A stretch of DNA of 64,000 nt from an uncultured Gammaproteobacteria bacterium (GTDB taxonomy: Bacteria; Patescibacteriota; Microgenomatia; Daviesbacterales; UBA10151). Each line of letters starts with the position of its first letter. Within the stretch, counting starts at the first letter, position 1. Where the stretch lies: NCBI GenBank assembly GCA_964393545.1, contig CAYMUB010000059.1:4571-68570 (forward strand), given 5' to 3'. The notes under the pieces are model-generated. The model saw nothing but the letters and a program-made list of their open reading frames with translations, did not search any database and was not told the origin of the DNA. Position numbers and translations under genes: made by a program. Shown here one piece after another: positions 7,329 through 12,520 of the stretch.

Positions 7329-7357
7329 TTGACTTTATGAACAAATTAAAATAGAAT
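7329..7357 (+). promoter_or_regulatory. Putative sigma70-like promoter for greA (TTGACT-17 nt-TAGAAT)
   Basis: -35 TTGACT 7329-7334, 17-nt spacer, -10 TAGAAT 7352-7357, ~20 nt upstream of greA ATG. Confidence 0.4.
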
Positions 7358-7378: not shown

Positions 7379-7873
7379 ATGACAAAGACAAATATCGTGT
7401 CTGCAAAATTTGTAAAAAATACTACTTATCTGACTGCTAAAGGGCTTACTGAGGCAAAATCTGAGTTGGATTTTCTTAAGAAAACTAAAAGATTAGAAAT
7501 TGCCGAAAAAATCCACCAGGCCAGAGAGTATGGAGATTTAGCAGAAAATTCTGAATATGATAGTGCCATAGAAGAACAGTCTTTAACAGAAAATAGGATT
7601 TCTGAGCTGGAGAATATTTTAAAAAAAGTTAAAGTTATTGCAGATAATCACACCGAAGATTTTATCGTAATTGGTTCAACTGTCAAAATTGATATGGATG
7701 GGGAAATTGATCAATTTAAGATTGTTGGTAGAGTTGAGGCAGATCCATCTAAAAAAAGAATTTCCAATGAGTCTCCTTTGGGGATCTCACTATTGGGTGC
7801 CAAAAAAGGAGAGGTGGTTGAAGTTACAACCCCAATTGTCAGATACAAATGTAAAGTATTGGAGATATCATGA
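7379..7873 (+). CDS. greA: Transcription elongation factor GreA
   Basis: 164 aa; N-terminal coiled-coil with conserved EYDSAIEEQ... and C-terminal FKBP-like domain; classic GreA. Confidence 0.9.
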   Translation: MTKTNIVSAKFVKNTTYLTAKGLTEAKSELDFLKKTKRLEIAEKIHQAREYGDLAENSEYDSAIEEQSLTENRISELENILKKVKVIADNHTEDFIVIGSTVKIDMDGEIDQFKIVGRVEADPSKKRISNESPLGISLLGAKKGEVVEVTTPIVRYKCKVLEIS

Positions 7874-9153
7874 ACGATCTACCCTTAATTAAATTTAATC
7901 CCAAACTGCCTAAACTGTCAGCAAATGAAAAAGCTGTATTAAAACTGCTAGTTGAAGCAGGGGAATTAATTGTACCTGTATATGTAGCCCAAGGAGAAGA
8001 TGCGAAAAAGGTAAATAAAGGGGATATTGATAAAGCTGGTAAGAAATCTCCCAATCTAATCTCTCCTTACACCATTGTTGAAAAAGTAGAGGGAAAGCTT
8101 ATAGCCACTCCTTATCATATTAAATACAAAGAACTTCTAAACCCTGTTGCAGAAAAATTAGAAGAAGCAAGCAGGATAACTGAAAATAAGGACTTTAGTA
8201 AAGCTCTCAAAGTTCAAGCAAAGGCATTGTTAACTGGTTTTTACGATCAGGCAACTATAGCATGGCTCAAAGCAAAGCCGTGTATTTTAAATATTTCCAT
8301 AGGTCCGCTTCTCCATTATGATGATCGATTATACTTCTCTAAAGCTTCATACCACGCTTGGGTAGGAGTGATTGATAAAGAAGGAACTGACAAATTGAAT
8401 AATTACAAAAGCATTACCCTAAGTTCCAGGAGAACAGTGCTGGTTCCCAAAGAATGGATTAATCCAGCTAAAATTAAAACAAAAGTACTTGATGTTGTTT
8501 TATTTTCTGGTATTATGGCGAAAACAAGATTTGTAGGAGTAAATTTACCAATTGATATCGATATTATTGAAAAAGATGGAACTGAAGTTACAATTTTTAA
8601 TCAGGCTAATGATTTAAGACTGAAGGAACAAATCTTACCAAGTTTCAATAAGATATTTTCCAAAGGATTTAGACAAGGTTTTACTGAAGAAGATTTGAGA
8701 AAAGGTTATCTGTTAACAACGACTCTTCATGAATTAGCCCATAGTTACCTTAACTATAGATATTCATTTGATAGGCTACAAGATCTATTTACTTGTATTC
8801 AGGAACTTGCTGCAACCATATTAGGGCTTCGTATGGCTGGGTCTCTGCTTTTGAAAGACAGAATTACAAATAAACAATTAGAATCAATGCTTACCGCATA
8901 TATTTCAAGAACCTTCTTCCTTAGGCAAGAAAATAGAAACAATGAATTTATGAGTAAATATATTTTAGGGTGTAATATATTTATTAACTTCATGTTGGAA
9001 AATGGTGCCTTAAAACAACGCGGTAATTTAATTTTTACCAATTTTACTAAAGTATTTGTCTCATTACATGATTTATCTAATCTATTAGAAGACTTACTTT
9101 CAAGTGGGGCTAGAAAAGACGCCCAGTCTTTCGTCATACGATATACAAGATAA
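7870..9153 (+). CDS. Hypothetical protein with HExxH motif (HELAHSY), paralog A of tandem pair; putative metallopeptidase-like
   Basis: 427 aa; start overlaps greA stop (ATGA); homologous along full length to 10218..11534; HELAH motif; family not recognised. Confidence 0.7.
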   Translation: MNDLPLIKFNPKLPKLSANEKAVLKLLVEAGELIVPVYVAQGEDAKKVNKGDIDKAGKKSPNLISPYTIVEKVEGKLIATPYHIKYKELLNPVAEKLEEASRITENKDFSKALKVQAKALLTGFYDQATIAWLKAKPCILNISIGPLLHYDDRLYFSKASYHAWVGVIDKEGTDKLNNYKSITLSSRRTVLVPKEWINPAKIKTKVLDVVLFSGIMAKTRFVGVNLPIDIDIIEKDGTEVTIFNQANDLRLKEQILPSFNKIFSKGFRQGFTEEDLRKGYLLTTTLHELAHSYLNYRYSFDRLQDLFTCIQELAATILGLRMAGSLLLKDRITNKQLESMLTAYISRTFFLRQENRNNEFMSKYILGCNIFINFMLENGALKQRGNLIFTNFTKVFVSLHDLSNLLEDLLSSGARKDAQSFVIRYTR

Positions 9154-9209
9154 AGTTGCCACATTAAGTTGCATTAAAGCTCGATTGTGAGTATAATCTT
9201 TTAAATCTT

Positions 9210-10106
9210 ATGGCAACAACTAGAACTGCTGAACGTATGGGTGAATATATTGGACCGACATCCTCAAGAGTAACAGCTTTAACGTACCAAAGAGGTGAAT
9301 ATATCTATGAAGTGCAAAAGGCGACACGCTCTAATTTAGAGGGTTTAAGAACTAGAGCCATTGGATTTGAAGGACTATTAGAGTATGGGCCCTTCCGTAC
9401 TCCTGCTGAAGTCACTAGCAATATTCAGCCAGGTAGCGAAGTCATTTTTGCAAGCTATAGAGGACGATGGAGAAGAATGTTTGGTCTTCCTGCAAAAGAT
9501 GTTGGAGTAATGACTCTTGAAGTTAAAACAGCGACTATAGAAGGTAGACCAATTAAAGTCATATCTACAGGGGTAAGAGCAGTCGCGGAAAATTTTCAAA
9601 AGCACGGTATAGGCACAGACTTTGTTAGAGATGCAATTCTCAGGCATAGACCAGATGCTGTTACAGGTAGATCTAGGAATTGGAAGGTATATCGCTCGCT
9701 CGAAAAGATTGATCTTTTTAAAAATGGAAGTATTTCTCCAATTGATAAACCATTTCCTCCAGAAGCTCCAAGGGCATTAGAGCAAGTGCTTGCTAGAAGT
9801 AAAATCATAGAGATGGATTTACAAACAGGTCTTGTTAGAGACATTTATCCAAAAAAGAAGCCAAAGGATTTTACTCCTCGTAAAGGTCATGTGGCTGGTT
9901 GGAGAATTCACGATGCATTAATAGCAAAAGGTGTACCCCCAGGAGGAACCAATGGATTAAGATATTGGGTAGAGACTGATCAAGATGCGATTGATGCTGC
10001 GCTTCCTGAGTATCAAAGGCTTTTGGAACCAGAACCTCTAACGCCTAGCAAACGGCCACTTCTACAATCAATTGCAGAGAAGGTAGCAGACTTCCTTCAG
10101 GTTTGA
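9210..10106 (+). CDS. Hypothetical protein (partner X of paralog A)
   Basis: 298-aa ORF, Arg-rich, locally higher GC than neighbours; no family recognised. Confidence 0.55.
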   Translation: MATTRTAERMGEYIGPTSSRVTALTYQRGEYIYEVQKATRSNLEGLRTRAIGFEGLLEYGPFRTPAEVTSNIQPGSEVIFASYRGRWRRMFGLPAKDVGVMTLEVKTATIEGRPIKVISTGVRAVAENFQKHGIGTDFVRDAILRHRPDAVTGRSRNWKVYRSLEKIDLFKNGSISPIDKPFPPEAPRALEQVLARSKIIEMDLQTGLVRDIYPKKKPKDFTPRKGHVAGWRIHDALIAKGVPPGGTNGLRYWVETDQDAIDAALPEYQRLLEPEPLTPSKRPLLQSIAEKVADFLQV

Positions 10107-10113
10107 AAAAAGT

Positions 10114-10146
10114 CTTTTAAAAACCTTCAGTTTCAGATATACTTAA
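10114..10146. repeat. Copy 1 of ~33-bp conserved unit-terminal repeat CTTTTAAAAACCTTCAG(T/C)TTCAGATATACTT
   Basis: Near-identical to 12486..12520; lies at the end of each 2.34-kb duplicated unit. Confidence 0.7.
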
Positions 10147-10221
10147 CACAAAGAAGGAGAAGTGGTTGAGGTTACAACTCCAATTGTCAGATATAAATGT
10201 AAAGTATTGGAGATATCATGA
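10147..10221 (+). pseudogene. Relic of greA 3' end (encodes ...KEGEVVEVTTPIVRYKCKVLEIS*) carried by the tandem duplication
   Basis: ~90% nt identity to 7802..7873; frame intact but no start codon, upstream in-frame TAA at 10144; ends in the same ATGA overlap with paralog B start. Confidence 0.6.
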
Positions 10222-11534
10222 ACGATCTACCCTTAATTAAATTTAATCCCAAACTGCCTAAACTGTCAGCAAATGAAAAAGCTGTATTAAAACTGCTAGT
10301 TGAAGCAGGGGAATTAATTGTACCAATCTATCTTGAACAAGAAAATCAGATCAAAAAAATAGGTAACCTTTATCCTAAAGGAGTCAATAAAGAGAAAATT
10401 AGGATAGCTGCTAAGAAAAATCCTGAGGTTTTATCACCATATACAGTAGTTGAGGAAGTTAATGGGGAGCTGAGAGCAGTACCGTACCATATAAAGTACG
10501 CACAACTTTTAAAACCTGTTGCAGAAAAATTAAATCAGGCAAGTATGATAGCTGACAATAAAGAATTTAGTGAATTTTTAAAGTTGCAAGCAAAGGCTTT
10601 ACTGGATGGAACATATGAAGATGTTTTTGCTTCATGGCAGAAGATGAAACCTTATATTCTAGATATTTCTATTGGACCTGTAGAGCACTATGATGACAGA
10701 GTATTTTTCACCAAAGCAGCTTATCAAGCTTGGGTTGGGGTTGTTGATATGGAGGCAACAAGGAAACTCTATTTTGATAAAACTATAGTTTTAAGTGCTA
10801 GAAGAGATGTTTTAATACCGGGTGAACGGTTAGATAATTATGAGAAAGTCAAGGCAAAAGTGGATGATGTACTCTTGCTCTCAGGATTAATAGCCAGGAC
10901 AAAGTTTGTAGGGCTTAATTTACCTATGAACCTTAAGCTTGTTGAAAAGTATGGATCTGAGGTTACAATATTTAAACAAGTTAATGATTCAAGACTACAA
11001 GAGCAGATACTCCCGACTTTTAAAAAGATTTTTTCTTCGGAGTTTAGAAAAGGATATAGTTCAGAAGATTTAAGAAAAGGTAGTTTACGTTATGTTGCCT
11101 TTCATGAGTTAGCGCATAACTACTTATACTACAAAAGTTCTGCTGAGAGACTTCAGGATTTACTCCCTTCTATCTACGAACTTACTGCTACTCTTTTAGG
11201 TATGAGAATTGCTGGGTCCTTGCTCTTAAAAGATGTCCTTACCAATAAGGAGCTTGAATCAATGATTGTGGCATTCGTTTGCAGAAGCTTTGACCTTATA
11301 GAGAAAAATAAAACTAACAAATTTATGATTAATTATGCTTCCGGGGGGGCTATTTTTATTAACTTTATGCTTGAAAGTGGTGCTTTAAAACAAAAAGGAG
11401 GCATGACTATGCCTAATTTTATGAGGATTTTTGTATCATTACAGGAGTTATCATATATATTAGAACGTTTGTTATCCTCAGGTATCAAAAAAAACGTAGA
11501 GGTTTTCATAAAAAAGTACGGACATTTAAAATAA
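10218..11534 (+). CDS. Hypothetical protein with HExxH motif (HELAHNY), paralog B of tandem pair
   Basis: 438 aa; first ~36 aa identical to paralog A (100% nt identity over ~127 bp), remainder ~50% aa identity. Confidence 0.7.
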   Translation: MNDLPLIKFNPKLPKLSANEKAVLKLLVEAGELIVPIYLEQENQIKKIGNLYPKGVNKEKIRIAAKKNPEVLSPYTVVEEVNGELRAVPYHIKYAQLLKPVAEKLNQASMIADNKEFSEFLKLQAKALLDGTYEDVFASWQKMKPYILDISIGPVEHYDDRVFFTKAAYQAWVGVVDMEATRKLYFDKTIVLSARRDVLIPGERLDNYEKVKAKVDDVLLLSGLIARTKFVGLNLPMNLKLVEKYGSEVTIFKQVNDSRLQEQILPTFKKIFSSEFRKGYSSEDLRKGSLRYVAFHELAHNYLYYKSSAERLQDLLPSIYELTATLLGMRIAGSLLLKDVLTNKELESMIVAFVCRSFDLIEKNKTNKFMINYASGGAIFINFMLESGALKQKGGMTMPNFMRIFVSLQELSYILERLLSSGIKKNVEVFIKKYGHLK

Positions 11535-12468: not shown

Positions 12469-12485
12469 AATTTGTTTAATTTCTT

Positions 12486-12520
12486 CTTTTAAAAACCTTC
12501 AGCTTCAGATATACTTTACC
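12486..12520. repeat. Copy 2 of ~33-bp unit-terminal repeat, immediately upstream of lysS
   Basis: CTTTTAAAAACCTTCAGCTTCAGATATACTTTACC vs copy at 10114. Confidence 0.7.

Follow-up and report, generated by a model that had tools for sequence, protein, structure and literature searches.

Our analysis indicates that two paralogous genes in the window (the whole 64,000-nt stretch of contig CAYMUB010000059.1 that we analysed) probably encode compact cytosolic M49 metallopeptidases and form part of a tandemly duplicated unit, the first gene overlapping greA. Both are shortened, divergent CPR members of M49 (dipeptidyl peptidase III, DPP III) and fall in its HExxH (pentapeptide) branch, which has already been characterised (see PMC5805324, PMC9820243), though the compact subfamily to which they belong has not been.

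Two paralogous frames and their assignment to M49

Copy A (7870–9153, + strand) encodes 427 amino acids and copy B (10218–11534, + strand) 438. The paralogs are 60% identical in full-length comparison; copy A is the faster evolving, deviating at 14 family-conserved positions, while the more conservative copy B, whose sequence was used for the AF2 model, deviates at 4. The initial annotation had placed both frames exactly and given each an HELAH motif, and we find both TTLHELAHSYLNY and VAFHELAHNYLYY. Its view that the proteins lack transmembrane segments and signal peptides also stands, with no convincing example in either copy; peak 19-aa hydropathy (1.39–1.68) falls on an amphipathic helix (model pLDDT 95–99).

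Relationship to M49 emerged from sequence and fold alike. A phmmer search of PDB sequences with copy B alone retrieved 6EOM (E=3.8e-26) and 5ZUM (E=4.4e-20), and a profile of the family strengthened both matches (6EOM, E=3.8e-38, residues 49–437; 5ZUM, E=3.5e-29), aligning HELAH with HEISH and YELxAT with EECKAD. The AF2 model of copy B (pLDDT 90.4, pTM 0.90) shows the two-lobed DPP III architecture, with a predicted lower lobe built on a beta core and a helical upper lobe that carries the metal site. In Foldseek its best 17 matches were all DPP III, with TM scores of 0.80–0.82 to 6EOM and 5ZUM. The initial annotation was right to see zincin-type HExxH proteins, but the family it did not recognise is M49 by sequence and by fold.

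The Pfam signal is faint. PF03571 scores 24.0 bits against copy B (gathering score 21) and 19.9, under that score, against copy A; the weak match spans only profile positions 68–195 of 548, the N-terminal third. At E<=0.01 PF03571 matches 22 of the 49 family members, no other Pfam family is recurrent, and NCBIfam holds no model for this family. The question of CPR restriction can be answered for the members named so far, every one of which is a CPR bacterium (Patescibacteria: Daviesbacteria, Curtissbacteria) and carries the label "hypothetical protein" at NCBI and JGI.

Metal site and active-site residues

The HELAH pentapeptide lies at 8728–8742 (+) in copy A (H287, E288 and H291, in invariant alignment columns) and at 11103–11117 (+) in copy B (H296, E297 and H300), where it aligns with HEISH of CaDPP III. 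Since H, E and H are invariant across the 49 family members, this is not a chance HExxH, and the zincin reading, made to depend on conservation of the two histidines, gains from their presence in 49/49. The third zinc ligand that the initial annotation proposed to look for is predicted to be an invariant Glu 20 residues past the second His: E312 of copy A (8803–8805, +) and E321 of copy B (11178–11180, +; 49/49 members). The latter aligns with the zinc-binding E412 of CaDPP III and with the second Glu of the CoDPP III EEAKAD motif.

Where DPP III carries its catalytic His (CaH460, CoH465, hH568), both copies have Tyr (Y364 of copy A, 8959–8961, +; Y373 of copy B, 11334–11336, +), an equivalence drawn from HMMER and MAFFT alignment with a 4-residue gap close by. 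Tyr occupies position 373 in 46/49 family members, and the classical M49 catalytic His (human H568, yeast H578) is missing. In the wider superfamily the position is Tyr in 57 of 75 short forms (His in 8) and His in 30 of 44 long forms (Tyr in 6); in sister-clade loci it is Tyr in 70/76 and 11/11. Such swapping of His and Tyr would fit equivalent roles as hydrogen-bond donors, with metal-site geometry and the placement of Tyr373 both resting on alignments rather than on model distances.

Other signature residues have drifted. The second signature here reads Y/Q/D-E-x-[ATS]-A-T instead of the full M49 E-E-x-R/K-A-E/D, its first Glu being Tyr in 42/49 members and its final acidic residue Thr in 43/49. 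Glu is kept at the hE316 position in 33/49 members (E156 of copy B), while copy A has Leu148 where hE316/CaE240, the anchor of the substrate N-terminus, aligns. The hN391 position (N234 of copy B) is Asn in 43/49; that of hN394 is Met in 38/49, followed by N or D, with Met or Ile as replacements. At the hY318 position Phe (20), His (15) and Tyr (7) occur across the 49 members, and Gln or His replaces hE329. The family also conserves F-x-x-x-N-L-P, the motif of the peptide-binding strand. Some superfamily relatives have dead metal motifs, so catalysis is not needed everywhere in the superfamily.

Comparison with characterised relatives

The closest solved enzymes are CaDPP III (Caldithrix abyssi, 6EOM) and CoDPP III (Corallococcus, 5ZUM), with which the window proteins share 20–23% identity over ~415 aligned residues, an HExxH rather than HExxGH motif, the Glu of the second motif as third ligand, and the conserved IGPxExYxD and F/A-x-N-L-P regions. 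The window proteins are ~100 aa shorter, however, and lack a ~50-aa segment past the second helix and ~35 C-terminal residues. Spacing from HExxH to Glu is X20 in the window family and X28–29 in the two enzymes (~8 aa fewer), the second motif is [YQD]-E-x-x-A-T against E-E-x-K-A-D, Tyr stands for the catalytic His, and Gln and Met stand for hE329 and hN394. CaDPP III has a predicted signal peptide (PMC5805324), which the window proteins do not.

Classical DPP III (human DPP3, yeast, Bacteroides thetaiotaomicron) follows the same metal-ligand logic with an HExxGH hexapeptide, but at 675–738 aa is ~250–300 residues longer; identity is 14–17% and sequence matches are marginal (profile E 9e-4). 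The pentapeptide branch also includes plant Nudix hydrolase 3, a fusion of NUDIX with an HECCH-type M49 domain (PMC9820243) that reaches 750–800 aa, whereas the window proteins have neither a NUDIX domain nor a NUDIX neighbour. In one short-form relative (L031), an overlapping NUDIX gene lies directly downstream.

Tandem duplication and the partner genes

The two M49-like genes lie within a larger repeat. The last 69 nt of greA and the first 110 nt of copy A (7801–7979, +) recur at 10149–10327 with 172/179 nt identical, the tract beginning 69 nt ahead of the ATG. Within this 179-nt tract identity at third codon positions reaches 0.97, against 0.31–0.56 in the remaining gene. The N-terminal 36 aa that had been called strongly conserved are indeed identical, but what is shared is a DNA tract: the identity reflects either the joint of a tandem duplication or a tract of gene conversion, and not selection on the peptide. 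Directly ahead of copy B, a non-coding remnant of the greA 3' end (10149–10217, +) keeps a GGAG Shine-Dalgarno-like sequence. It is preceded by a 3' repeat (10113–10144, +), a copy of the intergenic stretch ahead of lysS, which matches its second occurrence there (12485–12516, +) at 31/32 nt; the second occurrence holds a promoter-like TTTAAA-16-TATACT. The repeat at 10113–10144 and the greA remnant together form the joint of the duplication, confirmed at 100% identity by an independent Logan contig spanning 7947–10224.

The duplicated unit in this genome comprises two genes, the M49-like gene and a fast-evolving partner of ~290 aa: P298 (9210–10106, +; 298 aa), assigned to its fast-evolving family by single linkage and alignment, and its divergent paralog P289 (11599–12468, +; 289 aa). 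Copy A and P298 cluster with L014/L019, and copy B and P289 with L003/L004/L009; each unit belongs to a Daviesbacteria lineage of its own. In Daviesbacteria the partner family always follows the M49-like gene. We tentatively regard it as GNAT-like: its alignment has a conserved R-A-x-x-x-x-x-x-x-G-[LI]-G core (GNAT motif A being Q/R-x-x-G-x-G/A), Pfam Acetyltransf_1 matches weakly in 5/27 members (best E=3e-4), and the best, weak PDB match of its profile is the GNAT 4rs2 (E=0.013). The AF2 model of P298 has a pLDDT of 36.

Linkage to Gre factors

The greA gene (7379–7873, +) encodes a canonical Gre factor (Pfam GreA_GreB_N 3.9e-22, GreA_GreB 6.3e-20) with the acidic tip GDLAENSEY, downstream of a candidate sigma-70-like promoter (TTGACT-17-TAGAAT, 7329–7357, +; 10/12 in a consensus scan, in this AT-rich genome no more than a pattern match). 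The greA stop codon and the copy A start codon share an ATGA, as the initial annotation had pointed out, and the arrangement proved to be deeply conserved. This is the unexpected element of our data: the short form almost invariably follows a GreA-type transcription factor gene with nothing in between, and in many cases the two overlap. A Gre-family gene is the immediate upstream neighbour in 23/23 Daviesbacteria loci and for 69/84 short-form ORFs in sister-clade loci, the exceptions being mostly second tandem copies, and it is directly upstream in a distant HExxE clade too. The placement is near-obligatory across clades at only about 25–40% identity, with genes beyond the pair varying between lineages on both sides. 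Such a pattern is usually read as a functional link, and a housekeeping peptidase role leaves it unexplained.

One alternative is an accessory factor that works alongside Gre or RNA polymerase: the short M49-like protein might process, regulate or chaperone Gre or act on nascent or stalled complexes, with the peptidase scaffold serving mainly for binding or very specific cleavage rather than bulk peptide turnover. Beyond the gene order and the changing flanks, this reading draws on genomes with two Gre paralogs, where the divergent copy is the linked one, on the two long-form M49 genes examined, neither of which has a Gre neighbour, and on members with dead metal motifs, which persist in the same Gre context. 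Yet all of this is gene order from one radiation (Patescibacteria), whose small genomes retain old operons; the invariant metal site in the window's clade argues for real catalysis, and the condition of the Gre tip shows no covariation with that of the M49 motif. To our knowledge, no physical or functional link between a Gre factor and an M49 protein has been described, and we consider an accessory role rather unlikely. We give the same low odds to the idea that short M49-like proteins and Gre factors make up a conserved functional pair across Patescibacteria, in which a DPP III-derived metalloprotein, sometimes as a catalytically dead copy with a live tandem paralog, would act on or with Gre or RNA polymerase; if true, it would be an undescribed connection of a peptidase scaffold to transcript-cleavage factors.

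Proposed function

The most likely function for the short M49-like proteins is that of a cytosolic metal-dependent peptidase. A divalent metal, probably Zn2+, would be held by H296, H300 and E321 in copy B (H287, H291 and E312 in copy A) and would activate water via the motif Glu (E297 or E288), while the near-invariant Tyr373 may assume the transition-state-stabilising role of His568 (human numbering) in classical DPP III. Peptides would dock as an extra strand beside F-V-G-x-N-L-P, a conserved strand in the lower lobe. The gene is co-transcribed with greA and coupled to it in translation. The enzyme may trim short cytosolic peptides and so supply amino acids to a host that, in common with other CPR bacteria, is probably unable to make its own. 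Its exact cleavage specificity is uncertain, since the anchors for the substrate N-terminus are only partly kept.

Against a peptidase count the substitutions at several positions that matter in characterised DPP III, an X20 spacing shorter than in CaDPP III and CoDPP III and near that of the non-peptidase PolE, the dead metal motifs of some relatives and the strongly conserved Gre linkage. The DUF6421/PolE Fe2+-pterin oxidases have HE/DxxH-X(21–23)-E and no catalytic His (PMC12614342). Like the window family they combine a DPP III-like fold with a compact form (~370 aa), and with X20, Tyr for His and eroded substrate anchors, the HExxH...E triad could by analogy coordinate Fe or a different metal and so act chemically on an amino acid or other small molecule. 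We regard this as improbable. The two groups differ in taxonomic range and have no detectable sequence similarity: PolE is absent from the PDB sequence and profile matches even at E<=10, neither copy nor any of the 49 family members has a DUF6421 Pfam match, and the peptide-binding strand motif is conserved. As a rule CPR bacteria are considered anaerobic fermenters, which sits poorly with an enzyme of the DUF6421 type. DUF6421 is reported to be primarily actinobacterial and O2-dependent (PMC12614342).

The new metallopeptidase-like group outside known families that the initial annotation envisaged, for which the "hypothetical protein" labels, the missing NCBIfam model and the weak Pfam match (below threshold for copy A) could be cited, has almost no chance of being correct and is ruled out by highly significant full-length PDB sequence, family-profile and fold matches to characterised M49 enzymes, metal motifs included.

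Implications for M49 and for CPR bacteria

A profile search of the wider superfamily returned 1,276 clusters at 50% identity, and the CPR "hypothetical proteins" that can be renamed compact HExxH-type M49 homologues, with an explicit active-site map (H/E/H, Glu at X20, Tyr replacing His), number several hundred. Theirs is the smallest M49 architecture among those compared here, which together with PolE helps to delimit the minimal DPP III core, and the family illustrates the extent of drift open to the catalytic His and the second motif. Constitutive co-expression of a cytosolic peptidase would suit an amino-acid-scavenging lifestyle in CPR bacteria.

Family membership and fold

The two HExxH ORFs picked out in the initial annotation, A (7870–9153, + strand, 427 aa) and B (10218–11534, + strand, 438 aa), are real; both carry the motif HELAH, and a full-length comparison gives 60% identity between them. 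Their proposed status as a new metallopeptidase group is refuted by sequence and fold alike. The Pfam Peptidase_M49 profile (PF03571) matched weakly and over its N-terminal third only (24.0 bits for B and 19.9 for A, gathering score 21), and an NCBIfam scan of four ORFs gave no relevant match. A phmmer search of all PDB sequences with B recovered the dipeptidyl peptidase III (DPP III) structures of Caldithrix abyssi (CaDPP III, 6EOM; E=3.8e-26) and Corallococcus (CoDPP III, 5ZUM; E=4.4e-20), and a profile of 49 family members reached 3.8e-38 and 3.5e-29, respectively, in an alignment that pairs HELAH with HEISH and Y-E-L-x-A-T with E-E-C-K-A-D. Structural comparison, which the initial annotation had recommended, gave the DPP III fold: with the AlphaFold2 model of B (pLDDT 90.4, pTM 0.90), the first 17 Foldseek matches were all DPP III structures, with TM scores of 0.80–0.82 to 6EOM and 5ZUM. 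Both lobes of an M49 protein are complete in A and B, which belong to the HExxH (pentapeptide) branch, described and characterized previously (PMC5805324, PMC9820243). Homology and fold together make their place in M49 essentially certain, and they constitute a new, uncharacterized variant inside this known family. As initially noted, neither protein contains a signal peptide or a convincing transmembrane segment; the top 19-aa hydropathy windows (1.39–1.68) correspond to an amphipathic helix modeled with pLDDT 95–99.

Distribution of the short forms

When 1.84 billion cluster representatives were searched exhaustively with the profile, 1,276 clusters matched at E<=1e-3. About 70 of the best matches were short forms (435–480 aa) matching over their full length, followed by Ca/Co-type long forms (510–600 aa) whose match begins near profile position 50. 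The short forms fall into four groups: the clade of A and B, a sister clade with HEIxH ... DELxA, and groups with 'HExxE ... RELNA' and 'NLPCQ ... ELYCD'; some short forms have dead motifs. The RELNA second motif of the HExxE clade occurs in proteins P0133, P0137 and P0141–P0156, among others, and at L031:5001–6338 and L115:3001–4329.

The clade of A and B has 26 loci (55–70% identity) among the species-representative genomes, all of them in Candidatus Daviesbacteria or Patescibacteria MAGs, and named members of the sister clade belong to Candidatus Curtissbacteria or Patescibacteria. Every named member is annotated as 'hypothetical protein'. No named member was found outside the Patescibacteria radiation (CPR), most sequences being nameless, and the short-form clades are likely restricted to CPR. 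Several loci (L003, L007, L008, L010, L014–L018, L022, L024 and L026) are titled 'uncultured Gammaproteobacteria bacterium isolate binchicken_...'; these MAGs carry a Daviesbacteria-type locus with housekeeping genes 70–85% identical, and their titles appear to be taxonomic placeholders or errors.

Active site

Reference residues were taken from PMC5805324 and PMC9820243 and assigned by alignment rather than by distance (B numbering, counts over the 49 family members; h denotes human DPP3). The HELAH residues H296, E297 and H300 (CaH379, E380 and H383) are invariant (49/49), as is E321, aligned on CaE412 (hE508); E321 is the predicted third metal ligand, for which the initial annotation had proposed to look. 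The second His is separated from this Glu by X20 in the present family, compared with X28–29 in CaDPP III and CoDPP III. Elsewhere the site is partly altered. E156 (hE316/CaE240) is Glu in 33/49 members and Leu148 in A, and Y158 (hY318) is Phe in 20, His in 15 and Tyr in 7. The hE329 position (Q170) is Gln in 43/49, the hN391 position (N234) Asn in 43/49 and the hN394 position (M237) Met in 38/49. In the second motif, Y320 occupies the position of the first Glu (42/49) and T325 that of the terminal Asp (43/49).

The position of the catalytic His (CaH460/CoH465/hH568) is held by Y373 in 46/49 members. Over 127 superfamily representatives, short forms had Tyr in 57 and His in 8, whereas long forms had His in 30 and Tyr in 6, indicating that the two residues interchange here. 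This swap would fit an equivalent hydrogen-bond-donor role.

Tandem duplication and ancestry of A and B

When A and B were aligned together with the DNA 5' of each gene, 7801–7979 and 10149–10327 proved identical at 172/179 nt, with sharp edges. Third-codon-position identity is 0.97 in codons 1–36 and 0.31–0.56 in the remainder. The strong conservation of the N-terminal 36 aa noted initially is a feature of the DNA rather than of protein conservation: the tract begins 69 nt 5' of the ATG, so B is preceded by what is left of the 3' end of greA, non-coding here and including a GGAG Shine-Dalgarno-like sequence. At the opposite end, 10113–10144 matches the intergenic sequence 12485–12516, upstream of lysS, at 31/32 nt. 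With repeats at both unit ends, the layout (greA, [A, partner gene P298, intergenic], joint, [greA remnant, B, partner gene P289, intergenic], lysS) identifies a tandem-duplication joint, at which CAA(A) microhomology is present. An independently assembled Logan contig (run ERR4904393), which ends within the repeats on both sides, is 100% identical to 7947–10224 and crosses the joint, ruling out mis-assembly or a MAG chimera. Among the Daviesbacteria loci the two-gene unit is doubled only here; all the other genomes have a single M49-like copy within the ±5-kb flanks covered.

In a bootstrapped tree built from numpy distances, A and B do not pair as sisters; support for their placement was modest (24–57%). 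A clusters with L014/L019 (57%) and B, weakly, with L003/L004/L006. The partner genes concur, with P298 nearest L014/L019 and P289 nearest L009/L003. Either an old duplication had its unit ends later homogenized by gene conversion, or the interior of one unit was replaced from a different lineage. A is the more derived copy: it deviates at 14 family-conserved positions (B at 4), and no terminal branch of the tree is longer than its own.

Gene context in Daviesbacteria

The ATGA overlap between greA (7379–7873; Pfam GreA_GreB_N 3.9e-22, GreA_GreB 6.3e-20) and A, from which coupling had been proposed, is present. Daviesbacteria share the order PPase, HK(−), greA, M49-like gene, ~250–360-aa ORF, lysS, HD, serS; greA ends −25 to +78 nt from the M49-like start in all 23 loci with enough sequence, and 13 of these overlap.

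The ORFs downstream of the M49-like gene make up a single family that evolves very fast (linked at E<1e-5 by single linkage, mean identity 17%), comprising P298 (9210–10106), P289 (11599–12468) and 25 orthologous ORFs in L001–L028; in the same genomes the M49-like proteins are ~60% and HD and SerRS ~80% identical. A homology search found three database relatives of P298. Weak signals (matches of 5/27 members to Pfam Acetyltransf_1, the best at E=3e-4; partner profile against PDB 4rs2, E=0.013) hint that the family may adopt a GNAT fold; an AlphaFold2 model from four sequences was unusable (pLDDT 36). In the lysS slot between partner ORF and HD–serS, this genome (12528–14093) and some Daviesbacteria encode a class I LysRS (PF01921), and others a class II LysRS (PF00152, ~485 aa; e.g., L001:8352–9809), which looks like non-orthologous displacement in place.

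Gre linkage across clades

Sister-clade and HExxE-clade genes also lie directly behind a Gre-family gene, though their other neighbors vary (RTC or PfkB, tRNA m1G methyltransferase or NUDIX, DUF5667 or a 447-aa ORF). For the sister clades, 80 metagenome loci provided 84 M49-like ORFs with >=450 nt of upstream sequence, and in 69 of these a Gre ORF ends −34 to +99 nt from the start, most commonly with a 4-nt overlap. Almost every exception is an NLPCQ/ELYCD-clade gene that forms the second copy of a tandem. No Gre neighbor was found at the two long-form M49 genes examined.

Two neighbors deserve mention. At L031:6338–6712, a NUDIX gene shares 1 nt with the 3' end of a short M49-like gene of the HExxE type; this echoes both plant Nudix hydrolase 3, a NUDIX-M49 fusion, and the label 'MutT/NUDIX' given to CaDPP III (PMC9820243). 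The 447-aa ORF directly after the Gre-linked gene in L032 (4576–5919) had no Pfam match and no BLAST similarity to M49-like proteins.

The linked Gre proteins are canonical (GDLxENSEY) or have a tip 2 aa shorter, and in genomes with two Gre paralogs the M49-linked one is the divergent copy. In the sister clades (L046, L049–L056, L061–L092), about half of the M49-linked Gre factors have this 2-aa shortening of the coiled-coil tip (SEDL--NPEY or FGEI--EAEY), and in one group, L073–L078, ~20 tip residues are missing altogether. The HExxE-clade Gre is divergent and lacks the acidic tip, with a canonical greA ~3 kb away on the opposite strand.

Where the first M49-like copy is dead (SAIAQ-type), the second is intact (8/8) and the Gre genes are canonical. 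In metagenome loci L097, L099–L102, L106 and L108–L110 the operon runs greA, a dead short form (SAIAQ, SGIVQ, IGIAQ ...) and a 480–520-aa NLPCQ/ELYCD-clade paralog with intact HExxH, suggesting a pseudoenzyme/enzyme pair. Because dead-motif copies adjoin canonical Gre genes, covariation of Gre-tip with M49-motif degeneration is ruled out.

Predicted function

The best-supported reading is that A and B are predicted cytosolic metal-dependent M49 peptidases, of a compact and probably CPR-specific type that would be expressed constitutively together with greA. Whether they share the dipeptidyl specificity of DPP III is uncertain, given the changes at the catalytic His and at the residues that anchor the substrate N-terminus. 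A less likely reading, to which only gene order points, is a role associated with Gre or RNA polymerase. Another, also less likely, is PolE-like non-hydrolytic chemistry: the X20 spacing, the missing catalytic His and the similar fold would suit it (PMC12614342), but it finds no support in sequence.
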